DNA of 64,000 nucleotides from Botryllus schlosseri (Eukaryota), in contig CM119372.1 in assembly GCA_051294905.1 (NCBI GenBank), positions 23,004,001 through 23,068,000 on the forward strand, read 5' to 3'. Both the position numbers and the translations under genes were made by a program. Shown here in pieces: positions 28,781-64,000 of the stretch (position 1 is its first letter; each line of letters begins with the position of its first letter). The notes beneath the pieces were generated by a model. That model was given only the letters and a program-made list of their open reading frames with translations, was not told the DNA's origin and did not search any database.

Positions 28781-28846
28781 CACATCAGTCATAAATGGAT
28801 CTTCCAATATCACATGAAAAGTTATCTTTTAAAAGTGTTATAAAAT

Positions 28847-37054: not shown

Positions 37055-37831
37055 GATCTTGCTCCAGCGCGTTCCTTGGCTGATTATTCAGCGCTGACGG
37101 GAATGACGCATGCCGTGTTATTTTTGGCATATGTCAAAAATACCAAAAATAACTTAAATTTGGCATTTTTCAGATTTTATTTTTGGCAGTTTTGGCATCG
37201 CCTTGGATTCATATTTATAGACTCGAATTAACCATGCAAACTGCTTCAGTTTGGTCTTTCCTATGAAACGGAAGTCAGAACACATGCAGTATCCACACTC
37301 TGCCATCAAACAGCAATATTTGAATCCGAATTGAAAACGATGTTGGAGAAGAAATGTACCCGATACAAGACGAGTGCTTCGGCAATATCTATTCCCAATA
37401 GTCGATTCACTATGCGTACAACATTAACGGCATTCACACAGGTCACAATACTTACGATAGCAAAAGGGTTTCTGATACGTTTGGATAGCAGTCTTCACTA
37501 CCCAACCAATGGTTATGGAAATCACGAGTGGCTTTGATATTCAATATAATATGAAAAAAATATCCAACGGGAAATAAACAAAAAAAAAACAGTAAAGGAC
37601 TGAATGTTTGCAGGCCTATGTATGGTACGCATTGATGGGGGTTACTTCTTGGCCACTGAGGCATTTTGCACTGTATAAGTGTGTATGTTCAATTGTTCAT
37701 TGATGAAACTATATCCCTATTGTCCAATGGGACACAGTCTATAAGTGATTGCACCATATGATGACATTTTCCTTAACATGTTGTAACATGTTTCATTCAG
37801 TGTGCATGCCTCCTCTATACATCGCCTAGGC

Positions 37832-38499: not shown

Positions 38500-39587
38500 C
38501 AGGGGTGTCAAACTCAAATTGCGTCGCGGAACGGATTGAAACCTTAAAATCACTCGCTGGCCAGACCAGTCAACTAATTCCAAAATGTTACTTAATGCCT
38601 TTGCCTTTCGCTTGACTTCTTTGTTATCAAGCATAAATTTATATAGATGTGGATCACGGATCACGGCGGTATTATTCTACCAAGTAGCAACACCTTTATT
38701 CGCGAACAATGGAATTTGCGCAAATGCGATGATTGAGTGGTTGAATACAGTTATGAACCGCTAAAACAGTGCTGCTAACGACAATATAGGTTGGCAATTT
38801 CTATGTTGCCTTTGCTTCAGTCGTAATACGGCCTCATCCCTGCGCCGGCATTTGGGAGGGATACAAGAGATTTAACTACAAACACGGATGTTGAAATTTT
38901 CGGGGCAGTGACCAGCACAGTGGAATTGATACATAAACTTGGCAATTTCCGCATATCTTTTATGTTCAGGATACCGAGTCTTTTGAGCAGTGATTTGTTA
39001 GACGCACAACCTGGCCCCATTAGTGCCATGGCTATAATGCTATCTCAAGTCACCACGTCAGTCAGCTCTGCTAGTCAAGTGTATCACGTGTGAACTGAAA
39101 GAGGATGAAAAAATTAATAGCATTATATGCAATTACCAATGTTATAGACAACATTTCATCGTGTATGTGAAATTTTTTCGCGGCATGCGCGACACTTTTA
39201 AAAAGGAACCCCTATAACAGTGAAACGTGCCTTACCGGTCACGGTAAAAAAGGCCGGCGCGAATGTGGGGTGAGAGGCGATGCCGCAGAAGTTTGCTTTA
39301 TGATCTTATGGCGTTGGGGGCAAGACCAACGATTTTTTTCGGGGGGAGGGGGGTGACGAAGTACTGTTTAGTCCCTGAATTAGAGCGAAACCACAACACC
39401 GCAGTAGGCTTGTTATAATGTGGCCTATGAATATGAATAACAAATGTGCTGGATAGAATAAGCATTTTCAATCTACTCACCTGCGACACCCCTGTGCTAT
39501 AGATAATACAATATTTTTTCAATATACTCAGAATGGCTCCGCGGGCCGGATGAAATGGCATGGCGGGCCTCATGTTTGACACCCCTG
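38500..39587. mobile_element. hAT (Charlie-like) non-autonomous element
   Basis: TIRs caggggtgtcaaac / gtttgacacccctg; TSD CTGTACCT. Confidence 0.85.
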
Positions 39588-43282: not shown

Positions 43283-44073
43283 CAGAGGCATGGCGTGTCC
43301 TAATATGGACAAGTGGTCTCTGACTTGTTGAGAGTGAGACCTGTTTTAGCAGACCACTGTTGAAGCTATCTAGACAGGAGACATGTAACATATTTTCCGC
43401 TTTTTAGAAGTAGTGTTTGTACTTTTCTTTTAATTCACAGTAGTTTGAGTTCCAATTATTTTCAGTTCCTTTGTCCGGATCTGGAGAACTTACGTGTTGA
43501 AGTTTAAAAGCAAGTGTAGTAATAATGCCTCTATTTTCCTAAAATAAAATTACACTATGGTATGGCACTTTTACGATCCGTCATATTTTTTATTAACGTA
43601 AAGTCTTAACGCGCTATCCGATACAGCTTCTTGGTATTGCTCTTCGACTAAACTATGAGCCTTATGACACCATGACGTTTTCGAAAACGGGGTTTTCGGG
43701 TAAACAAAGATTAGTGTCCATAATAGTGATTTCCATAGCGATACTATCATTTGCATCCCGTGATGCGGACGAATGCTTATGCTCTCGAAAATTGATACCT
43801 CATGTGATGCATCAATATGAATCAAGCTCTCCGCCCCTTCCGTAGACCTATAGCTCAATTTGCAGGTTTTGACAGTTCATGCGAACGTATTATGACCGCT
43901 TTCAAAACTACTTACTTACTTGAGTAGATTTTAAGCCAGGAAATTCTACCTCTACCTCAAGTAGTTTTAGGTTGCTTTTAAAAAGACTACTTCTATTCGT
44001 ACTTGAGTAGATTTTTGCGTCGCTACTTCTACTTCTACTTGAGTAGCCTTCTTGACTACTTTGACCACCTCTG
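43283..44073. mobile_element. CAGAGGTGGTCA-family element with left-internal deletion
   Basis: TSD TATTTAGA; left end reduced to cagagg; right TIR tgaccacctctg. Confidence 0.75.
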
Positions 44074-44898
44074 TATTTAGAGCGCTGTTTGAGATACAAA
44101 ATAATATCCTGTATCTGATTTGAATCTTTTGTTGAATGAAACTTTTTTGTTTCTACAGGAGTATCAGTTATAACAGGGGTGGCAATTATTTTTCGCCGCG
44201 GGTCAAATGAGAAGCGGAAAATACGTTGGCGTGCCGAGTCAAAACATTTAGCTGTGTTTTACAGCGCAATAATTTTTTTTCGAAATTGAAAGCAGTGAAA
44301 TACACTGCCTATAAATGCTGCTCAGTGGATGTGCTGATATTAGGGAATGAGAAAATGAGGGTTAATTGCCAAAGATAATATTTATTTGCCGTCATATTTC
44401 GAACAATGTTAAACATGATACGTTTGAACTCTCTTTAAATCTCTATCTGCATCTTTTTATCAAGACATCAACAACATGTTTTTGGAATATTAGACAGCTT
44501 ATTGTCCTGACCGCTGCCTTCCGCGCACTGTGCAGCTTGGGGAAATAGCCTTGTTGTGGAGCGAAGCTTGCAGTTCTTCTGAAATTCACCCTCCCTTGAC
44601 CACTGTATGTCTTCGAGTTTTGGTCATACGACCGACTTAAATTTTAGTCCTTAAAAACGGCGTCCTGGTCGGCACTAACTACTACAAAAACAGGCTTACC
44701 CCCGACTTCAGTAAACAAATACTTATTGATCCAAACCTTCTTTGAATTTCAGCTTTCGGCTTTCTTATTTTGACATGCCAGTTCACTCTTTATGGGTGGA
44801 GATGACTCATAGTAATCACGGGCACCAATTGACTTGTTTTACGAATGAGGGATTTGGAAACGTATCAGGTAACAAGTTGAAGCACATGCCGTGTAATG

Positions 44899-45175
44899 CA
44901 GTGGTCATCAAACTTTTTAGACACGCCCCCCTTTAGGACAGCGAGGAATTTCGCGCACCCCTTATCGTCATATCACAATATACAACCAGAATGCTGGCAA
45001 TCCCAACGGATAGTTTGACGGCATGGGAGGTTATGACTGTTGAGAGAATTCTCAAATACGAAATTCGGATTATACACAGAGCATTAACTATGAATTGAAG
45101 GTAATTTTTTTCAGTTGACCGCAGATTCGTGCCCCCTTTCAGATGCTTTCACGCCCACTAGTTTGAAAACCACAG
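44899..45175. mobile_element. hAT MITE nested in a larger hAT element (~44174-45455; inverted homologue from 51150)
   Basis: TSD GTGTAATG; homologous to 37832-38147. Confidence 0.75.
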
Positions 45176-45526
45176 GTGTAATGCGTAATGTGACAATGCC
45201 AACAAAGAAGGTTTGACGACTTCTTGCGACTTTGACGGTTACGGCATGATTTGCCACATTGAGTTTATTTTGAATATGGATTACGCTTGCGAGGTGAACA
45301 GGCGTGAAAGTAAACGAATTTTCGGTTCAGTTTATACAGCCTATGGTTTTAGTCCACGCTGCAACATAAAAATGTAGGTTTTATGTTTTGAATTCCAAGC
45401 AACCTTTCGCGGGCCGCACAGATTAGCTCCGCGGGCCGCACTTTGTCCAGGTCTGAGTTTTAACGTCATGTAGTTTTTAGGCATATTTTATTCGTTACTA
45501 TCTAAAAAATTACGCAGTATGTGTCG

Positions 45527-45712
45527 CTAATAACCCTCGTTGCTGTAACCGCCATAGGTGCTGCATTTTAATAACAAGTATTGATCATAGTTACGAGGCT
45601 TGTAGCAAACGTATCCGTGATTATAATAGCTCAGAGGCTTGCTCTCTTTACTGTTTGGCCCACCAGTTCCAGGTCTCCATATCACCAATACATCTTTTGT
45701 TCCCGCCGCACT
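45527..45712 (-). CDS. Divergent C-type-lectin-like protein, last exon
   Basis: atttccag|SAAGTKDVLVIWRPG...HGYVCYKPRNY...EGY*; phase 0 matches the donor at 48766; YVC resembles the CTLD C-terminal motif. Confidence 0.6.
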   Translation of the reverse strand, partial: SAAGTKDVLVIWRPGTGGPNSKESKPLSYYNHGYVCYKPRNYDQYLLLKCSTYGGYSNEGY

Positions 45713-47357
45713 CTGGAAATATCGTAGCGAGCTGTAGTTATCAATATGGAATTCGCGATGGTCCTTGCCATAACTTCTTTGGCTATTATACTATATGGTT
45801 TACAAGTAGCTTTTTACCAGTGGCGGCTCGTCCTATAGGGCAACTGGGGCATTGCCCCACCTAAAATTCTGTTCAATAACAATTTAACCATTTATAGACG
45901 CACAGCGCTCAATATATATCGAGATCACAGCGAAACCCGCGTTCTTCTTGTGCTTTCGCTTGCAAATGCCCATACATAGCGAAGTCTCCGCGAAAATCGA
46001 ATTCTCTTCTGTGTTTTCGCTTTGTGAATGCCTAGCCGGGGCTTGCCCCGGTAGCGCTCATAACAAGCTTTCACTATCTATTCTCTCAAAGCTGCGCACA
46101 ATTAAGAAACGTTGCTTTACTCTCTCCTATTCGTAAAATGGCCGACCAACCGGGGCAAATATGCTTGCTGGCCCCTAAGGTGTGATGTAACAATCGTATC
46201 TATATCTGAACTCGGATACCGTGATATGCGTTGAGTCGACCGTTGCTGGTACAGGTCGATTTTGATGGTGTTTCACACCATGATAATTCTTGAAACTTGG
46301 TATGTCATGTCGTGATGGTGGTATTTAACACTGTCCTAAGTTTCAGGGTTTCTACTCAAAGTTTAGGGTAGTAATTCCGTTTCCAAAGTCGAGTGTGTGC
46401 TGATCGGTCATGTATCGCAAACATATTTCACGCAAAGCCGGTATTGGTCTCCATTGATTTTAACGATGCTCCTTAGCTAGATCCGTCATGAACTTTTACA
46501 TGGTATGTCTTGATTTTAGTATCGAACGCTGTGCCAAGTCTCAAGGTTGACACTCAATGATTAGGGCAGCAATTTCGTTATTAAGTTCGAGTATGGTAGA
46601 GATGTGCGCTGATCTGACACTTAGCCTACCTAACGCATTGCGGATTTCACGCAAAAGCCGGTGTATCTGTGTTCCATACTGAGATAGGTGATGAGATGAT
46701 GATATCATGAAACAGTTTACTAACATCCTCGGTTTGCATTCAAATATTTAGTTTTATTTTATATTATCCAATGTCAATTTCACCGTGGAATGGTGGCCTT
46801 CGGGCCATTTGCTCACAATTACAACCCCTGTCAAGCGCGATAGCTGTTTCGTTTTCGATGGCGGCTAACAGCTGATCGCTTGATCAGCCGATTCCTCAGT
46901 AAATATTACGCAAAATTCGGCGTTGATCTGTTCGTATTAATTTTGACAGTGTACCATACCGAAAACGGTCATGAGGCTATACTTCTCGATGATTTCATGT
47001 AACAGTGTACCAAGTTTTCGGCTTTCATCCACGTATTTATTCGGTAATATATTTTCCGAAGGCGATTTTGCAGCAGACATATAGACACTATAGACCGTAA
47101 GCCGTATGTGTCGTGTGACAGTCTCCAGCCTCAAGGCCAGAATCTCCCAAGCTGTACCGGGACCGAATTTCCGAGGCTGCTATCCGTAGTTCTTCAGAAT
47201 GATGTTTTGGATTCAATATGACATTTCCTTGTCCAATCTATGAGATAACAATTGCGTATGTGTCCGAACTCGTTGACCTTTCCAGTTAGGCATACGCAAT
47301 CTCTCGATTTATAGTCATTTCCATTTCTGCAGATAAGTAGTCAGGTCAAGTGCGAAC

Positions 47358-47972
47358 ATGAATCGTGTTGAATCTTTGCTCCGTACGCCGTTTAGCCAGC
47401 TGCCTTTAGAGCAAAAATTAGAGGTAAAGCGACTAGGTCCGTATCAGCCTAGAAATTGCCCATTGATCCAATCGTACGCCGGAGGAAAGCGCACTCGTGC
47501 CTTTTCTTCAGCGCATTTCGATAAAAATGAATGGCTTACTTATGGCGAGGATAAAAACGCCTTGTTTTGCTTTTACTGTCTTTTATTCGACAGTGCCGGT
47601 ACCGGAAGCAGTGGCTCTTGTTGGAACAAAATTGGTTATCGCGATCTGAAGCATTTGTCAGAGCGTCTGAAAACGCACCAAAAATCCCAAGTGCGCATGG
47701 CTAGTGCAGTTAAATATAAATTGTTTGGCAGAGTAAATGTAATGTCGCAGCTCAATGAAAGTTATCGCGTATCAGTCTGCAAGCACAATGAGCTTGTAGA
47801 TAAGAATAGGCATGTTCTCTCTCGGGTGATTGATGCCATTAAATTTATTGGAGTTCATGAATTGCCCCTTCGAGGCCACGATGAGAAGGAATGCTCTCTC
47901 AATAGGGGGGTATTTTTGGATCTAATTAAATACGCGGCTTCCATTGATAGCATTTTACTCGAGGCACACTGA
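47358..47972 (+). pseudogene. Truncated hAT transposase N-terminus (TTF-type zinc finger plus start of DUF4371, ZMYM1-like)
   Basis: WLTY..DKNALFCFYCLLF...W...GYRD...LKTH..S and LPLRGHDE...NRGVFLDL motifs; stops before the catalytic domain. Confidence 0.85.
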
Positions 47973-48114
47973 CAGTTAATTTACCGATATATTTTGTTAT
48001 GGCTATGGAAAAAAAGTGAAAAATTCATCAAGATGAAATAATTTATTCATGAAATTGTTTAATGCGATATGTGCTCGCATTTCAATTTAACACAATGCTT
48101 TGATTCCTGCTTGA

Positions 48115-48516
48115 ATGATGGCAGGCAGACTCGTAATTAATCTTCCATGGATAACAGCTGGCTTTTTATGTTTTACGTTTATGGGTGCCACCGCTTTGAT
48201 TGCCTATCCCCTGGTCGTAACGCATCAGGATCGTGTACCAAACACTTTCGGACGAGGGCAAATCGATTTGACTCGCTTTCGGGACGAGAATCCATATACA
48301 AATCGGGTCGGAGGCGCTGCAGCACTTTACAGAATTGCTGAGCATGGAACGATTAAAACACCACAAGGTGTCATGCGAATGCTCTTTGTAGGTAGTTGGT
48401 CTGTGTATTTTTGGTATAGTCTTACTCGGCGCTTGCGTAATCTCTACCACGAAATCATAACGCATGCTACTAAGGATAACCTGATGATTGATTCGTGGCA
48501 TGGGAACGATTCTTAG
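48115..48516 (+). other. Cargo ORF (133 aa) with two hydrophobic segments inside the hAT element
   Basis: WITAGFLCFTFMGATALIAYPLVV and VMRMLFVGSWSVYFWYSL; not transposase-like; coding status unproven. Confidence 0.35.
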
Positions 48517-48766
48517 TTCGCGTACATTTTGTAAAATAATCATTTGAATAAAAAACAATGAATAAAACATTTGTTACCGCACTTCAAGTCACGCCACCGG
48601 CAAACCTCTCGCGGCACCTACGTTAAAAATCATTGTTTACGGGAAATTCATGTGGCCATCATGAACGTTGAAAAACGCTACTGTGACGTCATATTGATAA
48701 CAAGTCGCTTGCGGCCCTTGCCCCACCACCCGATATTGTCACGAGCCGCCACTGCTTTTTACTTAC

Positions 48767-49099
48767 GCCATCATCGTCTGTCCACAGCCTCACTTCGCCC
48801 CAGTCCGCTGGAATCTTCTGTTCGACTTGATACTGAACCTCTGCGTATTCTGCGGCATTTCGGACCTTGTACACTCCAGCAGAATACTTGCTTTTGCATT
48901 CGGATTGCGCGGCGGCAAAACCTACGTTACCAAACCAATCGATTCGGACCCAGTAGTTACCTCCGTCGTATTGGAAATGGAAGGAAGATCCGGCTGCAGT
49001 TACAGAACGATATGAGGAAGACGTCGATTGCCACACAATGAAAAGCCGTACAATGCTGAGCCTGGATATCGTTCGCAATCCGACGTTATGTATGAACAT
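48767..49099 (-). CDS. Divergent C-type-lectin-like protein, first coding exon
   Basis: Hydrophobic N-terminal stretch, then F..YWV...VGFAAAQSECKSKYSAGVYKVRNAAEYAEVQ...RLWTD, ending at GGC|GTAAGT; start codon uncertain. Confidence 0.6.
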
Positions 49100-49206
49100 T
49101 TGAACAATGAACATTGAACAATCAACATGAACATTGAACACTGAATTGTGAACACACCTAGACGCAGTTGCTTGGATAAAGACATCAGTGAGCCATATCG
49201 TTAAAT

Positions 49207-50098
49207 TTAGTGCACCTCACAATCCATTGCATACGCCCCAATTTGGAAGACGTTTGCTACAATAATATTTCCATGATGTGGCATATTTCGTAAAATAACA
49301 ATACCAGGGGTGTGCTGTGCAACCCTTCCCACAAATAAGTCGGGTTTTAATAAAGTTGTAAAGCTGCACATTATCTTTTTAGTAATTGCTAAGGCCATCA
49401 AGGTAATGGCGAATCCGAGACTTATAAACACAACTCGATATAGGGCAATACACATAACCATTAACCATACTGTCGGCGGTATAAATCGCGAGTAAAGCTA
49501 AAGAAATTCAGCTTATCGAATATAGATGTTGTCGAGTATATTCATGTATGAATTCAGCGTATGCATATTTTAATTATTTGTTTCCTATATCTTGGCCCAC
49601 TTGATGTTAGCTCATACGTACCAGACTATAAGCTAAATTGGACAGCATCACACCGTTCGCAGTCCGAGCAATTTTTCTCCTTCAGCCACGGGTTGCACAA
49701 TGCAAAGTAGGCTATATATGTGGAACTATACAGCTATCCAACCGCCATGGTCTCACAAACCGATATTTCCCTCACAAGAGAGTTCAGTAATTGTAATAAT
49801 CGTCAGATTATATGTGGCGGAAGTGGCGTAGAAGCTCTCCACAAGGCAACTGATTAAAACGTAATAGGATTACAATTGAATTGGTTGATTGTGTAGTTTG
49901 TAGTAGAAGAAAGATTTGCTATCACTGTTATTTGTCAGATGCCGAATAATCGCTCCAGTTATATTGTATCAACTACTATAGCAAATCAAAACTCACGTTG
50001 CAACCGCGCCGTTTCGACTGTACCCGCCATCAGCATCACTAAGCCGAGCATGACAACCGGCGTAGTTGGCATACGGAAGGTTCGTCTATCTATAGTCA
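49207..50098 (-). pseudogene. Possible decayed MFS (SLC46-like) transporter exons
   Basis: Fragments PVVMLGLVMLMAG|GTGAGT, G*RRKIA...GVMLSNLAYSL|GT, AG|LYSRFIPPTVWLMV...SLGFAITLMALA; phase-0 intron 49498-49621; stops present. Confidence 0.3.
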
Positions 50099-51872
50099 TA
50101 GAAATAGCTTCAAAGAACGATTGAGATCGATATAAGACTAGGTAAAGGATAAGATACGTGGTTATATCTTAAAAGTTTGTTTGAGCGGGGCCATATTTCT
50201 AGATCTAGGATAAATTGAGATGAAACAGTATCTATACATAGTTTACTATACATTTTCTGTCTAGGTTTCCACCTGCAGCGGTCATGCACTACCAACTATA
50301 TTACTGACTAATATATTCGTACTAATATAAAACCGGATATTTTCGGCTGACGCTCGTCAAGGGTGATCGACAGCAACAAGTAGAAAATTGGATTGCTGAC
50401 GATTACTCCTGACGAGTGACAGCCGAACACATTTCAATATGAATATAGTATTCAATTGTATTGAAGTTCTCAACCTCCAAGAGTCGCATTTTTACCACGC
50501 GACTTCTACTTCTATTTGAGTATCAACACCAACAACTTCGACCGCCTCTGTTATATACCAGGCAACGGTGCCTTGTAATGATATCATGAAATGCCAGCGA
50601 AATCAATCCATAGTCCTCCCCGTCTGGAGAAGCCTCAGTCTTTTCGAGTCCGGGATTTCGAGAGACTCATGTCTGCGCAAAATAGATTACCTTTTTATAT
50701 ATTACTCAGAAAAATACAAGAACATCACCAACGAGCCGAAATGCGTCTCATAATGTATCGACAACGGATGCCATGTCGCTGTAATTTTTAAGAAATAAAG
50801 CCTATGGAATTGTAATAAGAAGGAATGGAGCGCTGCCTTTACTCGCAGACAAAGCACCCAGCGGATATCCACATCTCATTGACAATGCTCCGGAAAGTTC
50901 GTGCAGGCGCGGATATGAAACTTCATGATTACCACGATGTAATCCGCTCATTGCGCGATTCCTGCAGGAACGATTGATGCATGGCGCAACCCGTGCATCC
51001 GATTGCATCAGTTCGAATATTTCACGGTTAGTTGATGTTGCAGTTCAGTGTAATCTAACAGACTAATGTTTCTCACTGTAGTTAGGGTTTTCATATTTGA
51101 GACCGCAAAATTACTGACAAAACATTGACGCTACTTATATAGTCTATATCAGACCTGGACAAAGTGCGCCCCGCGGGTCAAATGCGGCCCGCGAAGCCAT
51201 TCTGTGCGGCCCGCGAAAGGTTGCTTAGAATTTATAACATTAAACCGACTTTTTGAATGTTGATGCGTGGACTCAAACGATAGGCTGTATCAACTTAACA
51301 TGAAATTCGTTAACTTTGAAGCCTGTTCATTAATATGCCACGATTACGCTGCCTACGTACCTCGCATGCGTAATCCAGATTCAAAATAAAGGCAATGTGG
51401 CAAAGTATGAGTAACAATTAAATTCACAAAAAAATCACTATTCCCATATTGCTTGAGTCAAGCCTTCTTTGTTGCCATTGTCACATTAAGCATTATACGG
51501 TACCTGTTTCAAATTGTTACGCGAGGCGTTTCCAAATCAATCAATGCTCGCGACTACTATATGACTCATCATATTTATCACCCATAAAGGATGAACGGGC
51601 ATGTCAAAAAGAGAATGCCTAAAGCTGAAATTCAAAGAAGGTTTAAAGCACTAGATATTTGTATACTAGAGTTAGGGGTGACCGCGTCCTTTTAGTTTTT
51701 GCCAACATGTCGCCGAGATTAAGGATTATAATTATGACAAAAACACGAAACACTCGGTCAAGGGAGGCGAATTTCAGAAAAAACTGCAAACTTCGCTCAA
51801 CAACAAGGCTATTTGAGCTGCACACTGCTCGAAATGCAGGAACTAAGACAAACTTTGTACTATCCCATATAC

Positions 51873-52915
51873 TAGGGTGGGTGTGAACCTCTGAAAGGTT
51901 CAGGTTCGTGTGAACGTGAACCTCTTTGAAATGCTCTGTGTGAACGCGAACGTCAACCTCATGACGTCACGTGACGTCATATTTCTAATTTAAACCCTAC
52001 ATTTCAGCGAAATGATATATATTAATGTACACGATACCTAGCGACGACTCGGGCCACATAATGCCACAATGCTGAAGTACATACTGACCTTTTAAACGTC
52101 GCCAAATGTATCAACTGGAGCAATCAAATGATATAATAATCCCATAAAATCAATATCTTCCGTCGCGTTGCCAACAATTTTGACGAGGACATACAAGGGA
52201 ATATAAGCTTACGCCTAAACGGTCTAGGCCAGACGAGACCATGTATTCGGCGTATGAGTGTTGTTACGTTTATATTGAGCAGAGTGTAAAACGGGGTTTA
52301 CCCCATTAACAAGTTATACAGCAGTAGCCAACACTCCAATCGCACGGATTTGGTTTTTATGATACAATAAACATATGAAATCGAGATGGACCCCGCGTAC
52401 AGACTTGGACAACTAGATAATCCTAGTTGTCTAATTTCACTAAATTAGAGCGGATTGCCAGTAATCTAATTCTAATCTAATTTGTGAAACATTTCGATGT
52501 TCTAATTCTAATTCTAATCTAATTCGTCAAATGTCCCTATTCTCTAAATCTAGTTCTAATCTAATTATTGTTTTCCTGGAAATGTCTCTTTGTCCGAGGC
52601 ATATTGCACTATTTCAGTGAGTTAACAAGAATATCTCCTCTTGTGCAAGGAAATCCAGTGCCAAACCGCCATCGCCTTACTTACACCGCGCAGTCATCGT
52701 AGATATTATGACGAATAATAGCCTGCTAGAGTAGCTTGTAGTCTGCGAACAACATTCTAGTTTTTAAAACTTTACGTTAGTACATCGCCGTTCTGACTAA
52801 CATGGGCGATGCCCATGGTTACCATAAAAGAAGTAATATTTCATTAAAGTATAGTAAAAATCGAGCAAAGCTTGGTGCACAGAAGTAAACAACTCTCATG
52901 GGTATGGGAATGCAC

Positions 52916-52955
<40 letters not shown>

Positions 52956-53338
52956 TAAACAAAAATATGTGACGGTTATCGCCTGACGGCCTTTTGCACC
53001 ACGCACTGTGATTTGATATGAACTGAATTTTGCTGTATTCATTTCCCATATACAAATTCATTGAATTTCCAAGTTTTTGGGAACTGAGTAATTCTAATTC
53101 TAATCTAATTTGGAAAAAGCTGTGTAGCTCTAATTCTAATTCTAATCTAATTTGGAAAATGCTGTGCAGCTCTAATTGTAATTCTAATCTAATTTGGAAA
53201 AACTGTGTAGCTCTAATTGTAATTCTAATCTAAGTAAAGAAAAACTGTGTAGCTCTAATTCTAATTCTAATCTAATTCCGAAAAGCTGAAAATTTTCTAG
53301 TTGTCCAAGTCTGCCCGCGTACGCTTGTTAGATTTTTT
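51873..53338. mobile_element. TAGGGATGGTGTGAAC family, copy 3 (truncated, interrupted)
   Basis: Homologous to 31092 onward; split by 52400-53313 and cut off by the LINE fragment. Confidence 0.75.
52400..53313. mobile_element. hAT MITE with CTAATTCTAATCTAA arrays and a (TTG)n microsatellite
   Basis: TIRs cagacttggacaactag / ctagttgtccaagtctg; TSD CCCGCGTA. Confidence 0.9.
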
Positions 53339-53339
53339 C

Positions 53340-54195
53340 CTGTTCTCACATCTCTAACTATTTCCTAGATCTCTTCCTCACTTGTGTCAGTTATAAAATA
53401 TGAATCTAAGCTTGACCTGCAGTAAACCACTGGGGATATATCAGGGTAATTGGCACAAGAAGAGGCCAACTTGTCACCTATAGAAACGATATACTCATTG
53501 AGTGATTGTGATATCACTATTCACTAATTTTGGTGCCATCGTCTTTGATGATACTAAGTGGAAAATTTGTATCAGTACGTTTTACATTATTCAACTGTTT
53601 GATCATACGAAAAGTTTGCCTTTGATCTCCATAATGATTGCTGAAGCAATTCATATAATATGACTCCTTTGCTTCTGATTTGATGTGATTCAACTTATTA
53701 GCATATGATTTATATTTTCTTTTATCGCCCTCAGTTCCACTCCGGGACCCTGTTTTATGCAAGAGTTTTCTCTTTTTAATAGAGCGTACGATGCCAGGAG
53801 TAATCCATGGTTTAATTTGCAGCTTTCGCTGCCTTCGTGACAATTTGTGAAGAGGAATGTGCTCATTTATCAAACGCAATATATTGACAATAAAATGATT
53901 AAAGTTCTCATTGAAGTTGTGTCTTGAGAGGGGGTAGAGTTATCATTAGCAAATTTGTCAAATGCATCGTGCAACAGTGAGTTTCGCGATTCAAGTGTTG
54001 GGAATCTTCTATATATACCATGGTGGCAGTAGGTGCAGGCGATTTAACTAGAACCTCAGCAACAAGTGGGTAATGATCAGTGAGGTCATTTTCCATAACA
54101 TAAGGAAATATTGTATATGAATCGAGGTTAGTGTAAATATGATTTATAAGAGTGGCAGAATGGTGGGTCACACGAGTGGGCTGCGTAATAATTAG
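53340..54195 (-). mobile_element. LINE (CR1/L2-group) ORF2 fragment, endonuclease end and linker
   Basis: QPTRVTHHSATLINHIYTN...DLTDHYPL and KPWITPGIVRSIKKRKLLHK; frameshifted. Confidence 0.8.
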
Positions 54196-55189
54196 GAATA
54201 GTGCCTACAGAGTTAAGAATGAATAAATAATCTTTTTCAAAAGCGGATTGGGATAGAATGTTGATATTTAGGCACTCCTGCACCGTCTACCATATACAAG
54301 TTATAACTTGTATACTTCCAAAGGGAAATAAACGACCATGGCCACAGGTATTCATGTAATTCTCACCGTTCTGTCTAGTATCACGGGGGCGCCTATAGCC
54401 TGTGATGATAGCGTGATGCAAATGATCGCATGATCGCATGCAACTGATCGCAGCTTCATGTGATTCATATTTCCGACTGTCAATCACAGAGCTTATGGAT
54501 ATTTTTCCCACGAGCTTCCGTCATTATATGTAAACAATTCACCGGAATTTTAAGGACACACGGTGATTGACTCCCAGCTTAAAATCAATTATGGATTGGG
54601 ATTGACTATAATGATATCCCAATTCGAGCATTACTTGCGATTTCCAAAGTAAGGCCCTCGTTCGATTTCCAGTTTTGTCTTCAGGTTTAGTAGTGCAATA
54701 AATATATCGACGATCCAATCATATCAATTCACCCTTTTGTCTGGATGTACAGAACATTTGCGAGTTAAGTCATTTTACATGGAATCTCATTACGTTTATA
54801 GCAATCCTATTCAGGCGTTTGTCCTATCGCATGACCATACATAGACGGCCAGCCCTCTCCTCCCACTTTTTAAAAGGGTAGGCTATGTTATATAATTCCC
54901 TAATATATACTACTATATTTACTATACTACTATTATTATTATTAAAAATTAGATTAGCATTAAAAAGTGTTTTCGTGCATTTGGTATTTACACGAGCCGT
55001 GGCATATCACATTCCATACTTTTAGCAAAAAAACCTTCTCCAGCAACTTCTTGTTATTATAAAGTGCTTCATGGATCTCACGACAGCTCAGGTCTTGGTT
55101 TACCTTTACTCCCGGCCGAAACAGCACTCCGTCAGCCCTCCCAAATAAAACCGTTGGTATGGGGCCTCCCATAGGGTGATAAGCCAAAC

Positions 55190-56190
55190 TTCTTCACTTC
55201 GTTCTGAGTAGGCGCGTCAACCAAGATGGAAAAAGGCTGTACACAAAGTTTTGACAAATCAATTTTTGAGCGTATGGAGCATGAACTCCTGTAAAAATGA
55301 TTGTAGTCTTGATCCATGTTGGAATCGGAGAATATTCCTTTTGCAATCGTAGTGGAGGAATGATTGCTGGTGTTTGACGGTGTGGAATGCCCAGGTACCC
55401 TCAGCAGCAGCTGCCCCTTGTGGTCTGTGGTCGTTGGTGCTGATCAACTTGTGAGAAAATTGTTCATCGACTGGTTCGAATCAATCATTATGACACTCTT
55501 CTTGTGTTTTGGGGTATCAATGTGGGTTGAAATAGCGGTCTTTCCTATGGCCACCAGATTAGTGTCACAATTGCAGATATTGCAATGTGCGAAACACTCG
55601 CCCTCTAAGCTTCCTTTGATACCTTTGAATTCTCTCTCATAATCGTCACGAAAAAGTTTTTACGCCTGATCATTTTAACTAATCAGATTTATCCTTATTA
55701 GTAGCTAAAACTATATGCGCGATATAATTTAGATAAATTTATCAATGATTTATTGCTTTACTACTTTTTAACCCAAGTGTCGACTGCACTGCGCCCTTTT
55801 TCAGTACCTATAAATGCTGCCTTCCCCACAGCTTATATTCTGCTGTATAGGCTAAACAGCAGAAACCTGGTGTTGCTGTTTACGGCTAAAGTGACGTCCG
55901 CTACGATAGCTTGGAACATCCAAAACTTCTATACTACTCACTGCCCTAGCTATCTCACCACTAGGAAGTCAAATCGTGTGGAGTGTACGCCACGGGACTT
56001 CCTTTCATTCATGATGTCATAACAGCTCGACGCGAAGGCAGAATTTTAAAATATTATGCAACACAGATACCAGACGAAAACGATCGAAGTTCTGTAGGTG
56101 TTGAAAATAAGACAAAATAAGGACGCAAGTCGAAAAGAAGGACAAATCTTAGAAATAAGGACGGTACATACATGCCATATGGCCACCCTG
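55190..56190 (-). mobile_element. Decayed DNA transposon 5' part (zinc-finger transposase fragment and terminus)
   Basis: AHCNICNCDTNL...STHIDTPKHK and AAEGTWAFHTVKHQQSF; terminus tggccaccctg at 56190 with GGAC subterminal repeats. Confidence 0.55.
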
Positions 56191-56836
56191 TGTATAGTTG
56201 TAGTCAGCAGTCTTGACGCATTGCATTAAAGTTCAAATCTCTTTTTTGGTAATATCTGGATACTCCTAATCCATCATGATTAGCTCCTCGTACTATAAAG
56301 AGATATTTTAGTAATTCAGAAATATGCTCGGTTTCAAATCTTCCACGTACTACGGCCTTCTGAACTGGTCAACAACATCTTTAGAATTAATACATCTAAT
56401 TTCGCTCTCATGATGATTCTTCTGGTAAATACACGGTTCATTTAATAGCATTACATTGACACTTGAAGTTTCGACTTTAGACTTCTAATATCCCCTAACA
56501 CTATTCTATTCTCGAATCCAAAAAGGTCTGGAATTATCCGTCATATGTTTAGATACACGCTAAGACAAGAATGACGACGACTAAGTACTATTCTATATTT
56601 AAGGTGTGACGATCAACTTTTCGCCATATTTTCTATCTTCCGGTATTCAAATTAAGCTGACTTGCTCATCGCATTAATCGGCCATTTAACTTGGTGATAT
56701 ATTTTCTATAGTTTATGATGTCATAAACCTCGATCATCGGCATTCACCGATGTTCGCGATAGCTACGACATTGCTACAGAAACAATGTGGTGTAGGAAGT
56801 TCTCCCCATATACGATGATGATAATACTGGTCTTCA

Positions 56837-57500
56837 AATTTCGAAAAAAAAATTGCGCCAAACATTTTAATGATTGATTTAGGCTAATGTAAGGTTGCTG
56901 AATTCGATTCTGTGCTCAGAATTTCTTTATCACGTCAAACTTTTTCCGTATGAATTTTTCCCATTTTCGTAAATTAATCAAATTTCGACTTTCGTTATTG
57001 ACATCACGGTTAGCATACAACAGCAACAGATCAAATATTGTTATTAAAATCATCTATCATGAAACCTGAGTTGTTGTAGTACAGAATGAGTGAGTTTTGA
57101 TGAACTTGAATCCAGTAAATCTCTATCTTTGTTCAATGTTCAATCAGAAGCTCTTTTCGACCCATAAAATTACACTGATCTACGAATTTCAAAAATAAAT
57201 TGCCTCAAACATTTTAATGATTGTTTTAGGCTAATATTAGGTTGCCGAATCCGATTTTTTCTCTATCACGTCAATTTTTTCGGTGTGTATTTTTCTCATT
57301 TTTATAAATTATTCAAATTTCAGCTTTCGTTAGTGACATTCCGGTGAGCGTACAACTGCAACAAATCAAATATTGGTATTGAAATCATCTATAATGATGA
57401 AACCTGGGTTGTTGTAGAACAGAATAACTGAGTTTTCGGAGAACTTGAATCCAGTGGTTCTCTTTTCTCTTTCGATCAGGACCTCTTTTCGACCAATATA
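56837..57500. repeat. Diverged ~350-bp tandem duplication
   Basis: 56837-57165 aligns with 57185-57495. Confidence 0.7.
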
Positions 57501-58514
57501 TTTATACGTGGATGCAACTAATTTTAGTCGGTAGCAGTCATCATCTTTATATACCACTCTTCATTTGAAGATTGTGATTAGTGGCTCCGTACCTAATTTA
57601 GTTCCCTACGCTTATCATTCTTTATACATCCGTCCTGCAGACTTAATCGGTTAATGCATTTTGTGACAGCACACTGCTCTTTCGTAAAACGTGAAAATGT
57701 TTGCAAACAACAAACATTGTATTGTTGGTATATTATGTAGAAGAGAATTTTTCACTCCTGTACATGACCTAAATATGTGGCCCTTAAAGCTTGTTTTGGA
57801 ACATTAGAAGAAACAGGATGCCTGCTTTTCCAAAGAATAAAGGGCTTATCATGATAACTTGAAAAAATTTGTCATCAATAATCTACGCCTCTACTTATCA
57901 TGCTAATTCTTCTTCTCCAGTTTTCATATTCTGTTACATTTTAACGGAATCGAGGAAAGCTGTTTGCTTTATTTTTATTTTCGGTTTATTGCCCAGGTAT
58001 AAAGGGCTTCTTTTGCATTGTCTATTATAGACAACCAGATGAATGGAGACTGCTTACTAACAGCTCAACACGAAACCTGAAGTGCGTGTTAATTCACAAT
58101 AGAAATAAATATGCATCGGTTCTAGAACAGTCGATCCGTCTCGACATAGGACGTTTTGTGGCCTACACCACATACCACGTGTTCTATGCTGGAAGAGAGC
58201 CAGAGATGAGCATTGGTTAATTTCTAGTGACGTTTTTATATGGTTTCGAGGCTTTTTCCTAGTGTTTTGCAGGATTTAATGCCAGTTCTAAATACAAACA
58301 GCTTCGAATTTTTGGTTGTTTCTGTTTTCGCCGTAATATTTTACTATGAACTAGAGTTGGTCGAAGGGATCGGCGTTGCTACTCAAGTAGCACAAGTAAC
58401 GCCTTAGACTTCTACTCAATTACAAGTAGAAGTAATAATTTCCCGAGACATCTGAAAACTATTTCAAGTGGAATACGAACTGAAAGGTCTGATGAAGTCA
58501 GTAAATTTCTAAGT

Positions 58515-59380
58515 AAAACTGAACTCATCATTTTTACGCCAATCAGACGCCCCATCGACCACAATCAATTCACCATCAGATTCGGACCAGACACCATTCA
58601 AGCCAAGACCTGTGTACGTAACCTAGGTATTCACTTTGACGGCATGCTCTCAATGGAAAACATATCGACTATACATCAAAGATCTGTTTCATGTATATCC
58701 ACAAGATCAGTCGAATCAGGAACTACCTATCTGAGGATGCATGCAAAGCCATAATACTGTCGCTGGTGATATCGCGGCTTGACTGTGGAAATGCTCTGCT
58801 TTACGGGGTAAACCAAAATTGCATCGACAAGCTACAAAAGATCCAAAACATCGCTGCTCGTTTGGTAACTCGGTCAAGGAAGCGTGATCACGTAACGTCG
58901 ATTCTTAGATCCCTTCATTGGTTACCCGTGAAATTTAGGTCTGAATACAAGCTTCTTCTGTACGTCTTCAAATGCATGGAGGGAAGTGCACCAGCGTATC
59001 TTCGTGAGCTAGTGTCAATGTATAATCCCGGAAGAGCGCTGCGTTCTCAGTCGCAAAAACTCTTGTCAGTTCCAAGAGTCAGAACATCGACCTACGGCGA
59101 GAGAACCTTTTCTTCCTCGGCCGCCATTCTGTGAAACAATCTTCGATTTTCTATCCGACTATGTGACTCGCTATATGTTTTCAAACGCAAAATCAAGACC
59201 GTTTTATTCGCACGAGCGTTCGAGCTACAGTAGTGTTCATTCCCCCCCAACAACTATGCACTCCGTCTTTTATACATATCATTTACTTTTATACTTTATT
59301 GCCTTTTATGTACAGCGCCCAAGTGTAGTAATGATATATTGTTATATTCGGCGCTCTATAAATTATTATAATATTATTAT
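58515..59380 (+). mobile_element. L2-clade LINE 3' end
   Basis: KTELIIF..., SLVISRLDCGNALLYG, LQKIQNIAARLVT, LRSLHWLPV, APAYL; ends in an ATT/TAT-rich tail. Confidence 0.9.
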
Positions 59381-60748
59381 ATTCTTTATTCACAGTAAGA
59401 AACTGGTCAATACACACATAATCCGGGGAGTAACCTGCACCCAAAGGAAAATGGCGAGATTGGAGTAAATTTTTTAAAATTTCAGTAATGCAGTCAAATT
59501 GTTATTCCTATGCAATACATGGAGTCTAAGTCAGATTACAGAATTGCAGTAGATGAAGAATTGGCAAGGGTTACAGAGCAGAGGTAGAGATGATTGAAAA
59601 TGAAGAATCGAAATTACAGAAACGATGCTCTGATTCACTAGTATAATTTTAGTCCAGTGGTGCATTCAACGCCTTCCGAAGAATATGCACAGTGCCCAAT
59701 AACGTGATCTTTTGGATCATGTCGAATCGAACGTTACCCGGAATCTGTCGGATATGTCTCATGAGTTTTTTGCTTACGACCCCTGTAGCGCCAATGACTA
59801 TCGGTACAATGTTTATTTTGCATCGCCACATTTTCTCACATTCCATTTTGAGGTCTGCGTATTTGGACTGCTTTTCTGATTCTTTTTGTTGTATATCGTG
59901 ATCAGCTGGGACAGCCAGTTCAATGAACAAGCATTCTCTTTTCTTTTTTAGTTTGATGATCATATCCGGGCAGTTGCTTCTGATTTCGGGGTCAGTTATA
60001 ACTGGTACATCCCACAGAATTTTTACCTGTTCGTTTTCTGTCACTGGTGCTGGGCTGTAATCGTACCAATTTTTTGTCGAAGTGGTGATGTTAAAATGTT
60101 TGCATAATTCAAGATGAATGTAGTGCCCAATCCTATTGTGTCTCCATGTGTATTCGGTAGCTGCAAGTGCACCACAGCCGGACATGTGATGTGCCACAGT
60201 TTGATTTTGGTTGTGGCACATTCTGCATTTGCCGTCTGTGTTTTGCTTCAGAATTCTTTTGCGATAGTATTTTGTAGGGATAACATAACATAACATGGTT
60301 GGGTTATATTTTTATCTGAACAAGTCACACACAATGTACAATGCGATAAGACACAATGCGATGTCATGAACAGATAGGAGGATGTAGAACCACACGCATC
60401 AGTAGCGATCCTTTACTCTAACATCCACCTCGGCCTAGAGTGCCCGATGTCACATTTCTTTTTTTTTCGATGCTGAGCGATTGGTCTTGTGCTGCGAAAA
60501 TGAACCCTTCGCTTGTCGGTTTCAGACCAGAGCTGGATAGCCAGGTCCATGAAAGCTCGTCTACATGGGGCTTTGAAGTTAACTTCTTGTGCTGTACATG
60601 AAGAGGCATTGACTCCCATATCGTTTCTCTCATTTTGAGCGTTGCATTTTTGTATCGAACTCGTGCTGCTTTTGCTATTGTTGTGGGTTTGGCAACAGTG
60701 TTTTCAGCAGTGTACAGGTTAGCTGTTTCCATGTTGACTTCTCTGACG
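59374..60748 (-). mobile_element. R4/Dong-like RLE non-LTR retrotransposon, 5'-truncated copy A
   Basis: LKPTSEGFIFAAQDQSL, CRMC...H..SGC zinc knuckle, RHN, PD..IELAVP, EKQSKY restriction-like endonuclease; 3' UTR ending AATAAAGAATATAATAA. Confidence 0.9.
60281..60474 (-). mobile_element. SINE 3' fragment inserted in the R4/Dong ORF
   Basis: (ATGTT)n tail; removal restores QDQSLPTKYY in frame; similar to 3045-3150. Confidence 0.7.
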
Positions 60749-63700
60749 TTATTATATTCTTTATTCACAGTAAAACTGGTAGATACACACATAATCCGGG
60801 GAGCAACCTGCCCCCAAAGGAAAATGGCGAGATTGGAGTAAATTTTTAAAATTTCAGTAATACATTCAAATTGTTATTCCTATGCAATACACGGAGAAGT
60901 CAGATTACAGAATTGCAGCAGATGAAGAATTGGCAAGGGTTACAGAGCAGAGGTAGAGATGATTGAAGATGAACAATCGAAATTACAGAAATTATCAGTG
61001 GCGGCTCGTGACAATATCGGGTGGTGGGGCAAGGGCCGCAAGCGACTTGTTATCAATATGACGTCACAGTAGCGTTTTTCAACGTTCATGATGGCCACAT
61101 GAATTTCCCGTAAACAATGATTTTTAACGTAGGTGCCGCGAGAGGTTTGCCGGTGGCGTGACTTGAAGTGCGGTAACAAATGTTTTATTCATTGTTTTTT
61201 ATTCAAATGATTATTTTACAAAATGTACGCGAACTAAGAATCGTTCCCATGCCACGAATCAATCATCAGGTTATCCTTAGTAGCATGCGTTATGATTTCG
61301 TGGTAGAGATTACGCAAGCGCCGAGTAAGACTATACCAAAAATACACAGACCAACTACCTACAAAGAGCATTCGCATGACACCTTGTGGTGTTTTAATCG
61401 TTCCATGCTCAGCAATTCTGTAAAGTGCTGCAGCGCCTCCGACCCGATTTGTATATGGATTCTCGTCCCGAAAGCGAGTCAAATCGATTTGCCCTCGTCC
61501 GAAAGTGTTTGGTACACGATCCTGATGCGTTACGACCAGGGGATAGGCAATCAAAGCGGTGGCACCCATAAACGTAAAACATAAAAAGCCAGCTGTTATC
61601 CATGGAAGATTAATTACGAGTCTGCCTGCCATCATTCAAGCAGGAATCAAAGCATTGTGTTAAATTGAAATGCGAGCACATATCGCATTAAACAATTTCA
61701 TGAATAAATTATTTCATCTTGATGAATTTTTCACTTTTTTTCCATAGCCATAACAAAATATATCGGTAAATTAACTGTCAGTGTGCCTCGAGTAAAATGC
61801 TATCAATGGAAGCCGCGTATTTAATTAGATCCAAAAATACCCCCCTATTGAGAGAGCATTCCTTCTCATCGTGGCCTCGAAGGGGCAATTCATGAACTCC
61901 AATAAATTTAATGGCATCAATCACCCGAGAGAGAACATGCCTATTCTTATCTACAAGCTCATTGTGCTTGCAGACTGATACGCGATAACTTTCATTGAGC
62001 TGCGACATTACATTTACTCTGCCAAACAATTTATATTTAACTGCACTAGCCATGCGCACTTGGGATTTTTGGTGCGTTTTCAGACGCTCTGACAAATGCT
62101 TCAGATCGCGATAACCAATTTTGTTCCAACAAGAGCCACTGCTTACGGTACCGGCACTGTCGAATAAAAGACAGTAAAAGCAAAACAAGGCGTTTTTATC
62201 CTCGCCATAAGTAAGCCATTCATTTTTATCGAAATGCGCTGAAGAAAAGGCACGAGTGCGCTTTCCTCCGGCGTACGATTGGATCAATGGGCAATTTCTA
62301 GGCTGATACGGACCTAGTCGCTTTACCTCTAATTTTTGCTCTAAAGGCAGCTGGCTAAACGGCGTACGGAGCAAAGATTCAACACGATTCATGTTCGCAC
62401 TTGACCTGACTACTTATCTGCAGAAATGGAAATGACTATAAATCGAGAGATTGCGTATGCCTAACTGGAAAGGTCAACGAGTTCGGACACATACGCAATT
62501 GTTATCTCATAGATTGGACAAGGAAATGTCATATTGAATCCAAAACATCATTCTGAAGAACTACGGATAGCAGCCTCGGAAATTCGGTCCCGGTACAGCT
62601 TGGGAGATTCTGGCCTTGAGGCTGGAGACTGTCACACGACACATACGGCTTACGGTCTATAGTGTCTATATGTCTGCTGCAAAATCGCCTTCGGAAAATA
62701 TATTACCGAATAAATACGTGGATGAAAGCCGAAAACTTGGTACACTGTTACATGAAATCATCGAGAAGTATAGCCTCATGACCGTTTTCGGTATGGTACA
62801 CTGTCAAAATTAATACGAACAGATCAACGCCGAATTTTGCGTAATATTTACTGAGGAATCGGCTGATCAAGCGATCAGCTGTTAGCCGCCATCGAAAACG
62901 AAACAGCTATCGCGCTTGACAGGGGTTGTAATTGTGAGCAAATGGCCCGAAGGCCACCATTCCACGGTGAAATTGACATTGGATAATATAAAATAAAACT
63001 AAATATTTGAATGCAAACCGAGGATGTTAGTAAACTGTTTCATGATATCATCATCTCATCACCTATCTCAGTATGGAACACAGATACACCGGCTTTTGCG
63101 TGAAATCCGCAATGCGTTAGGTAGGCTAAGTGTCAGATCAGCGCACATCTCTACCATACTCGAACTTAATAACGAAATTGCTGCCCTAATCATTGAGTGT
63201 CAACCTTGAGACTTGGCACAGCGTTCGATACTAAAATCAAGACATACCATGTAAAAGTTCATGACGGATCTAGCTAAGGAGCATCGTTAAAATCAATGGA
63301 GACCAATACCGGCTTTGCGTGAAATATGTTTGCGATACATGACCGATCAGCACACACTCGACTTTGGAAACGGAATTACTACCCTAAACTTTGAGTAGAA
63401 ACCCTGAAACTTAGGACAGTGTTAAATACCACCATCACGACATGACATACCAAGTTTCAAGAATTATCATGGTGTGAAACACCATCAAAATCGACCTGTA
63501 CCAGCAACGGTCGACTCAACGCATATCACGGTATCCGAGTTCAGATATAGATACGATTGTTACATCACACCTTAGGGGCCAGCAAGCATATTTGCCCCGG
63601 TTGCTCGGCCATTTTACGAATAGGAGAGAGTAAAGCAACGTTTCTTAATTGTGCGCAGCTTTGAGAGAATAGATAGTGAAAGCTTGTTATGAGCGCTACC

Positions 63701-64000
63701 GGGGCAAGCCCCGGCTGGGCATTCACAAAGCGAAAACACAGAAGAGAATTCGATTTTCGCGGAGACTTCGCTATGTATGGGCATTTGCAAGCGAAAGCAC
63801 AAGAAGAACGCGGGTTTCGCTGTGATCTCGATATATATTGAGCGCTGTGCGTCTATAAATGGTTAAATTGTTATTGAACAGAATTTTAGGTGGGGCAATG
63901 CCCCAGTTGCCCTATAGGACGAGCCGCCACTGGAAATTATGCTTTGATTCACAAATGTAATTTTAGTCCAGTGGTGAATTCAAGGCCTTCCGAAGAATGT
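60749..64000 (-). mobile_element. R4/Dong-like copy B (3' UTR and ORF end), split by hAT copy 2
   Basis: 60749-60990 aligns with 59374-59622; 63941-64000 aligns with 59627-59686. Confidence 0.85.
60996..63932 (-). mobile_element. Young non-autonomous hAT element (2,937 bp), copy 2
   Basis: Same TIRs; perfect TSD GAAATTAT; mirror ORFs at 61778-62392 and 61234-61635. Confidence 0.95.

Follow-up and report, generated by a model that had tools for sequence, protein, structure and literature searches.

How did two nearly identical transposon copies come to lie in opposite orientation, 12.2 kb apart, and what might such a pair do to the gene beside it? The copies were found in the 64-kb stretch of DNA analysed here (the window). 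A sequence-only reading had described them as a giant inverted repeat made of two recent hAT insertions, and exact alignment agrees with the equal length (2,937 bp), opposite orientation, three substitutions and separate TSDs that it had noticed by eye. Pairwise alignment of both copies gives 99.90% identity without gaps, with substitutions at 46033/63717, 46146/63604 and 47605/62145, two of them non-coding; the divergence is 0.10% (95% interval 0.02-0.30%). Calling this a giant inverted repeat is true geometrically, while its nature is that of two transposons, not a palindrome. Features are collected in Table 1.

Table 1. Features of the twin elements, their target sites and the host gene (window positions).
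Feature	Position	Strand	Basis or comment
Left copy TSD, left half, CTTTTTAC	45810..45817	.	flank comparison
Left copy, internally deleted hAT element, TIRs 45818-45831 and 48741-48754	45818..48754	+	
Left copy TSD, right half	48755..48762	.	covers host intron +5 to +12 (host gene on - strand)
Spacer between twins, 12,241 bp, uninverted	48755..60995	.	chiefly older repeats plus host exon
Right copy TSD, left half, GAAATTAT	60988..60995	.	
Right copy, same deleted hAT element, TIRs 60996-61009 and 63919-63932	60996..63932	-	
Right copy TSD, right half	63933..63940	.	
Uninterrupted paralogue of right target site, single 8-mer GAAACGAT	59619..59626	.	sister repeat copy
Truncated transposase ORF, left copy	47358..47972	+	residues 1-200 of 697-aa hAT transposase
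Truncated transposase ORF, right copy	62392-61778	-	one extra change, G83V
Internal deletion junction, 2-bp overlap	47955..47956	+	X12 contigs
Host coding exon, 75 codons + 2 nt, ctgcag acceptor	48767..48993	-	phase-0 GTAAGT donor at 48766-48761
Putative next host exon, ttccag acceptor ending 45713, 61 open codons then stop	45527..45712	-	sequence only

The termini of the elements are sharply defined. All four twin ends (4/4) carry the perfect 14-bp TIR CAGTGGCGGCTCGT, and a search allowing up to two mismatches returned four matches in the window, all of them twin ends, against 0.18 expected (100 shuffles). A separate perfect 8-bp TSD flanks each copy (CTTTTTAC for the left, GAAATTAT for the right); among repeat lengths of k = 2-12, a match was seen at k = 8 only, for both copies. 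Homology between the twins ends at the element boundaries, and the flanks are not duplicated. The uninterrupted paralogue of the right target site lies 1.4 kb from the right copy, within a sister copy of the repeat into which the right element inserted (59374-59622 aligns to 60749-60991 at 93.6%, and 59619-59684 to 63933-63998 at 88%), and confirms insertion with an 8-bp duplication. The right copy presumably entered a non-LTR retrotransposon fragment at its 3' end; Pfam did not confirm this family.

The twins are almost certainly two independent cut-and-paste insertions, each of which left its own 8-bp TSD; independence from segmental duplication, as proposed earlier, is borne out by the distinct perfect TSDs and by homology that stops at the TIRs. 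We rejected a segmental or inverted duplication because the flanks are not duplicated, a fold-back element or palindrome because of the 12-kb heterogeneous spacer and the separate TSDs, and a composite transposon or macrotransposon because both outer ends are 5', with differing flanks (CTTTTTAC versus GAAATTAT) and no shared outer TSD. A completed TE-mediated inversion (NAHR product) was also rejected, since the TSDs are not exchanged. By this TSD criterion, used in PMC2775673, the spacer has undergone no inversion so far, as the sequence-only reading had held.

Several features place the twins in the hAT superfamily: the 8-bp TSD (2/2), the short TIRs, and the PF05699 domain and DDE motifs predicted in an intact relative. 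That relative, a 697-aa protein from public collections (P0002), matches the twin ORF at 199 of 202 residues (99%) and belongs to a cluster in which four of the seven members are full-length at 697 aa. Pfam assigns it DUF4371 (70.4 bits) and the hAT dimerisation domain PF05699 (45.6 bits; cut-off 21.4). The motifs DETTD, YDGA, CYAH, RWN and SAESER, at 248, 311, 340, 398 and 630 of P0002, all lie past the twins' deletion point; we take them to be the DDE triad with CxxH and RW. The protein resembles ZMYM1-like proteins of Hydra (50%) and of a fish (46%), and its one match in a PDB sequence search was irrelevant. Members of the Buster group of hAT have a TSD with a central TA, which neither TSD here shows at positions 4-5 (0/2, two sites only). 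The architecture of DUF4371 with hATC and the Tip100-like TIR are suggestive of the Tip group without defining it, and the transposase may be Tip-like, a placement by architecture and TIR likeness. The length of hAT TIRs is given as 10-25 bp in PMC3942097. A literature search with a 9-mer of the TIR returned only unrelated papers among the matches listed, and Rfam gave no match in 44000-64000.

After residue 200 the left ORF continues for a few unrelated codons and then stops, without the catalytic DDE residues or the dimerisation domain, and tblastn did not find the C-terminal transposase part in the twins. X12 records 10 and 11 diverge from the window at 47956 and 47955, continuing for 544 and 1,071 other letters. 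We infer an internal deletion of at least ~1.5 kb because the remainder of the 697-codon ORF is missing. With an ORF spanning only residues 1-200 of 697, the twins are not autonomous; judged from their sequence, they represent one Ds-like, non-autonomous internal-deletion derivative that cannot make a working transposase and whose partner is known from its protein. The family had been called recently active, and the 99% match to an intact transposase supports a young family. The proposed search for a full-length transposase succeeded for the protein; in a metagenome scan for DNA of the intact element, none of 27 pattern matches was confirmed.

The left copy lies 12 nt inside an intron of what the exon's homologues indicate is a real coding gene. 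Two homologues of the host exon were found at 41% and 38% identity (E 1.3e-11 and 1.3e-10), and both read 'VS' at the donor position; a third match, P0035, covered 21 residues in a repetitive protein and was excluded from the homologue alignment. If the putative second exon is used, the predicted intron would measure 109 nt without the insertion and 3,054 nt with it. This second exon gave no Pfam match, ESM Atlas matches below 0.9, and no RNA joint among the best 15 of 1,698; another frame of this DNA, encoding a short cysteine-containing peptide, needs a non-standard splice and is less favoured. A C-type-lectin-like identity for the host exon is a weak lead. In the ESM Atlas, 11% of the members of the clusters ranked 2-3, at 0.90, have Lectin_C; LOX-1 or Ly49I accounts for nine of the 12 PDB rows, at E 0.45-0.65 and below two unrelated rows. 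The exon had no Pfam match, Lectin_C included, and no match in a PDB sequence search; fold searches with its low-confidence model (pLDDT 51) gave no meaningful match (lowest E 0.68, highest Z 3.5). Among candidates for a full-length host protein, 0/8 and 0/1,426 scored, the searches covering proteins from 131 and from 173 aa upwards. The idea that an inversion would separate lectin exons thus keeps one coding exon, backed by homologues, while the lectin label is weak and the second exon unsupported.

The origin of the pair turns first on the kinship of its members. Both carry H113R, absent from 6/6 cluster members covering the site, and T193A, absent from 5/5; at the protein level they are closer to each other than to the seven cluster members, and G83V is a derived change of the right copy only. 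The common deletion and these two substitutions missing from intact relatives make the twins close sisters. We favour a local hop as the likeliest origin of the pair (probability about 0.65), because the deletion and the private substitutions are common to both. hAT elements are documented to hop locally (PMC2753552), and in rice a single Ds gave rise to an inverted pair with its members 1.1 kb apart (PMC3239180). Counting against a local hop, the twins are not identical (three substitutions) and the window is saturated with repeats, among them a second inverted pair of the same family (8458-9790 / 27436-28781, 17.6 kb apart, ~91.5% identity), so adjacency of relatives is common in the window.

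Chance adjacency after a recent genome-wide burst of the deletion derivative, with both copies coming from distant donors, is the strongest rival, though rather unlikely. The family is multi-copy (X12 depth of 94-177 over the transposase region versus 2-3 in four low-copy pieces, depth not being copy number) and has other deletion joints (45853>47193 and 47688>48626), and the three substitutions imply some separate history. With assumed copy numbers and an assumed genome size of 0.3-1 Gb, 10-50 equally similar copies would yield 0.001-0.12 chance pairs this close genome-wide and 200-500 copies 0.6-12.6, the expectation exceeding one at ~200 copies for 0.3-0.5 Gb. However, the two substitutions common to the twins are absent from all intact cluster members covering them, and X12 contigs cross 47955/6 as the full-length form. 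At 46170 the twins' letter has low depth, which may point to a rare sub-lineage, a hint only, as contigs drop rare variants.

That depth comes from a read comparison over 44000-61040 in four of 24 listed runs (X1, X6, X12, X23), which was swamped by repeats and for which X1 counts are incomplete. At 46170, 46216, 46242 and 46492 each of the three contig sets has the twins' common letter as a minority, and RNA reads show it in 0/10, 0/19, 0/10 and 0/7; these positions are among the 40 best-supported differences, beyond which there are 1,086 more. In X1, the closest sample, the twins' letter makes up ~29-40% of summed depth at three of the four positions, so those variants are not private; at 46170 its depth is 676 of 82,319 in X1, and zero in both X6 and X12. 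Low-copy pieces differ from the window at 13/697, 3/253 and 5/348 (X6) and at 15/1111 and 9/851 (X12). Both insertions are probably much younger than these between-sample differences at the locus, and thus probably segregating rather than fixed.

Gene conversion can act between inverted repeats, and such later homogenisation of two older insertions would account for the common deletion and private substitutions. This is highly improbable here: neither TSD pair has a mismatch, the window's other inverted pair has not been homogenised (91.5%), and the twins are 99% identical in protein to intact family members elsewhere, so the element is young regardless of conversion. We hold it equally improbable that the assembly created the pair, either as a haplotype mosaic placing heterozygous insertions in cis or by polishing that inflated arm identity. 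X1 does have two alleles at 45722-45737, beside the left site, which makes the locus heterozygous in the closest sample, and no listed record spans the stretch. But an assembler could not invent two different perfect TSDs and a seamless empty paralogue, a fold-back chimera would have brought duplicated flanks, and there are none, and three differences remain between the arms, one of them (G83V) derived in the right copy only.

Under the favoured local hop, the family's intact 697-aa transposase would have moved the derivative in trans, one twin arising from the other over a short distance while the donor was kept, either because the element transposed during replication or because the gap was repaired from the sister chromatid. 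The outcome would be the inverted pair with 5' ends outside. The pair has not recombined, and its likely effects are passive: it lengthens the 109-nt host intron to ~3 kb, and it is a substrate on which ectopic recombination could occasionally invert the spacer or aberrant transposition of the SCT/SLCT type could act.

What the pair could do follows from its ends. The outer ends are both 5' and the inner ends both 3', so only directly oriented 5'+3' pairs exist. By analogy with known pairs, this geometry would permit recombinational inversion and SCT/SLCT-type alternative transposition, not classical macrotransposon behaviour. The earlier proposal of alternative-end transposition accordingly survives for the directly oriented pairs and fails for the macrotransposon's outer pair and the reversed-ends pair; inversion of 48755-60995 is allowed by the geometry, with no inverted allele among the listed rows. 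Neither an empty-site joint, an inverted allele, a junction-spanning contig nor a host splice joint appears among the best 15 of 1,698 joints and 24 of 175,451 pieces in the repeat-swamped comparison. It is very unlikely that the twins act as a natural, active 'double-Ds' in an animal, in which the intact Tip-like transposase or ectopic recombination flips or breaks the spacer so often that inverted and uninverted alleles segregate or arise somatically, switching off a lectin-like immune gene. If it were true that the identical TIRs make ends interchangeable, the outer 5' ends could move an 18.1-kb block with the exon, and the pair would then be a precursor of hAT composites caught in the act.

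The twins mark a young hAT family, probably still mobile, with an intact transposase in public data. The family thereby has some value for transgenesis, as a candidate tool, and as an indicator that structural variation is still arising. The locus offers a clean substrate in its state before inversion, and any flip of the spacer would show up as exchanged TSDs. A natural pair in an animal, with its products observed, would merit reporting; no such products have been observed at the twin locus. The inverted twin arrangement is real but ordinary, of a kind known in plants to cause local inversions.

In plants, linked hAT pairs are well established as a source of alternative transposition, as described in PMC3239180. 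The inverted Ds pair of rice OsRLG5-161 treated there is, like the twins, non-autonomous hAT with its own 8-bp TSDs, in or at a gene, and offers two directly oriented 5'+3' end pairs; it gave SCT, SLCT and 11% (33/300) spacer inversions by homologous recombination. That pair was engineered, with 5.9-kb Ds elements 1.1 kb apart, over-expressed Ac and tissue culture, whereas the twins are natural, 2.9 kb long, 12.2 kb apart, of another hAT group and in an animal genome, with no rearrangement observed. Tip100, BuT2 and the BuT2 deletion derivatives, as presented in PMC3942097 and PMC12511174, share with the twins the 8-bp TSD, short TIRs, size range and internal deletion, and BuT2 shares the DUF4371 and PF05699 architecture with P0002; of the twins' first 11 TIR bases, 8 agree with the published Tip100 TIR. 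The BuT2 transposase has five exons and 643 aa, the twins' relative a single 697-aa ORF. The maize Ac/Ds macrotransposon (PMC3239180) likewise has two nearby hAT copies enclosing host DNA but uses external 5' and 3' ends, whereas both external ends of the twins are 5', without a shared outer TSD. Galileo of Drosophila buzzatii, a P superfamily element, also provides opposite DNA transposon copies as an ectopic recombination substrate with a diagnostic TSD pattern; after inversion its copies have exchanged TSDs and chimerism (PMC2775673), while the unexchanged TSDs of the twins represent the pre-inversion state.

The two hAT copies are of equal length (2,937 bp), lie in opposite orientation and differ by three substitutions and no gaps in self-BLAST and direct comparison, as had been noticed by eye in the sequence-only reading. 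Each has a perfect 14-bp TIR at both ends, and these four ends are the only TIR matches with at most two mismatches in the whole window (0.18 expected); no further match to the element was found within the window. Each twin is flanked by its own perfect 8-bp duplication, different for the two, and among lengths of 2-12 bp tested only 8 matches. The right copy splits a repeat, of which an uninterrupted second copy lies 1.4 kb leftward; the latter matches the left flank as far as the target 8-mer and, from that 8-mer onwards, the right flank, and it carries the 8-mer a single time, direct evidence that the right copy inserted with an 8-bp duplication. The different TSDs and the uninterrupted paralogous target site bear out the claim of separate insertions, and the two-insertion reading of the pair is sound.

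The sole protein-like ORF of the element matches DUF4371 below the Pfam threshold. A search with this ORF among longer proteins gave 18 matches in 1,918 candidates, the top one being P0002, a full-length transposase of 697 aa from public collections, identical to the twin ORF at 199 of 202 residues. P0002 has DUF4371 and a hAT dimerisation domain, both above cut-off, and its 90% cluster has seven members (four full length; contigs up to 4.8 kb). Its relatives P0003-P0019 (45-86% identity) come from several sources and include ZMYM1-like-named proteins in Hydra and a fish. The twins retain transposase residues 1-200 and none of the remainder. Two contigs of sequencing run X12 cease to match the window at 47956 and 47955, continuing for 544 and 1,071 other letters, which locates the internal deletion junction; judged from the missing part of the ORF, the deletion would be at least about 1.5 kb. 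Every catalytic-region motif of P0002, in roles that we presume, falls in the deleted part. Both twins have H113R and T193A, which are absent from all cluster members covering those sites (6/6 and 5/5), and G83V is in the right copy only; H113R falls in a probable zinc finger (C71, C74, H107, H113; Pfam support weak). The truncated ORF, shared deletion and shared H113R and T193A thus make the twins one Ds-like derivative requiring transposase in trans. Other internal-deletion derivatives of the family appear as high-depth joints in runs X6 and X12 (45853>47193 and 47688>48626).

The left copy lies 12 nt downstream of a minus-strand GTAAGT donor, which it leaves intact. The adjoining exon of the host gene is coding: of its three matches among 1.84 billion representatives, two align along its length (41% and 38%). 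Both of these homologues show 'VS' at one same point and diverge after it, as would be expected of read-through past a conserved phase-0 donor. A candidate next exon, predicted from sequence, starts at 45712; Pfam, the ESM Atlas and the joints listed from reads gave it no independent support. For the lectin label there are weak leads: ESM Atlas clusters matching the exon at score 0.90 have Lectin_C in 11% of members, and its PDB rows, non-significant, are mostly LOX-1 and Ly49I; Pfam and fold searches of the exon were blank or uninformative. A fibrinogen-domain exon 20 kb from this lectin-like exon is possibly part of a second innate-immunity gene.

The right copy sits just past the ORF end of a fragment that we take to be part of a non-LTR retrotransposon, where it is not expected to disturb any host gene. 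Pfam gave one sub-threshold, unrelated match on the two 3'-end copies of that retrotransposon. A segment of about 200 bp has an RNA depth of about 2,100-fold per strand in run X23 (elsewhere about 1-50) and thousands of loose ends, and joints from 60275/8 to 60476 bypass it in X1, X12 and X23. It thus has the look of an insert of its own, strongly transcribed, within the fragment; it has no Rfam match.

Features of the window in and around the hAT pair
Feature	Position	Strand	Remarks
Left twin	45818-48754	+	ORF 47358-47972
Right twin	60996-63932	-	ORF 62392-61778
Host-gene exon	48993-48767	-	
Fibrinogen C-terminal domain exon	25655-26068	-	PF00147, E 3e-24
Non-LTR retrotransposon 3' end (presumed), two copies	59374-60311; 60749-60995 + 63933-64000	-	second split by right twin; ORF presumably of a restriction-like endonuclease
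Transcribed segment	~60280-60476		
Inverted pair, one hAT-like MITE family	8458-9790; 27436-28781		TIR starts CAGGCCGTGTTATTTTTGGCA; perfect 8-bp TSD CACATCAG at 27436-28781, none seen at 8458-9790
Fragment of that family	37108-37230		
Further elements, at least six	6078-7820; 6368-6560; 32489-34458; 34573-37054; 38500-39587; 52400-53313		CA-starting TIRs, perfect 8-bp TSDs; one nested inside another; 52400-53313 is a MITE with TSD CCCGCGTA, a (TGT)n run and subterminal tandem repeats of 42 bp
Degenerate fold-back-like self-inverted repeat	16628-17250		74% identity over about 620 bp

The twins diverge by 0.10% (0.02-0.30%), and in most low-copy pieces other samples stand about 1-2.8% apart from the window, so both insertions probably postdate the allelic variation and still segregate. 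Intact hAT-like MITEs are dense in the window, which besides the twins holds 15 homologous pairs 240 bp or more in length (all 16 pairs, which are not independent: 12 inverted, 4 direct). These, including the inverted hAT-like MITE pair (17.6 kb apart, 91.5% identity), caution against over-reading the closeness of the twins; the MITE pair also shows that arms of this sort do not become homogenised as a matter of course. Whether one twin hopped from the other hinges on the number of equally similar copies: in a simple random model with assumed genome sizes of 0.3-1 Gb, the expected number of chance pairs this close is 0.001-0.12 if there are 10-50 copies, rising to 0.6-12.6 if there are 200-500. 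The read comparison offers hints at best: at four pre-selected element positions the letter common to the twins is outnumbered in every contig set and has no RNA reads, but in X1, the closest sample, it still makes up 29-40% of summed depth, which does not equal copy number, at three of the four. hAT elements are known to hop locally, with about 15% of Tol2 re-insertions on the donor chromosome (excerpts of PMC2753552), and we give roughly two chances in three to one twin having arisen by a local hop from the other.

Completed TE-mediated inversions are recognised by exchanged TSDs (excerpts of PMC2775673); those of the twins are unswapped, in agreement with the original view that the spacer has not inverted. 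Its inversion would cut the host-gene exon off from any exons to the left of 45817. Among the read-comparison rows listed, in a comparison swamped by repeats, there was no empty, inverted or broken allele at the locus, and short contigs are unable to reveal an inversion because all four junction sequences persist after it. By ORF direction, both 5' ends point outward and both 3' ends towards the spacer, and a 5' end of one copy pairs with a 3' end of the other in direct orientation only. Alternative-end transposition, as first proposed, is thereby narrowed to the directly oriented pairs: the end pairs required for a classical macrotransposon or reversed-ends reaction are absent, unless this transposase were to treat its ends as interchangeable.

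The element resembles the Tip group in domain architecture and TIR: P0002 shares DUF4371 and the hAT dimerisation domain with BuT2, which carries DUF4371 and hATC, and the TIR of the twins agrees with that of Tip100 at 8 of 11 positions (excerpts of PMC3942097 and PMC12511174). In rice, the directly oriented 5'+3' configuration of a Ds pair gave the alternative transposition reactions SCT and SLCT, and 11% recombinational spacer inversions (excerpts of PMC3239180). Because that pair had a 1.1-kb spacer and over-expressed transposase, whereas the spacer here is 12,241 bp, rearrangement rates at the twins should be far below the rice figures. The twins add one more case to a well-documented class, the linked and inverted pair of young non-autonomous hAT elements, here before any inversion.
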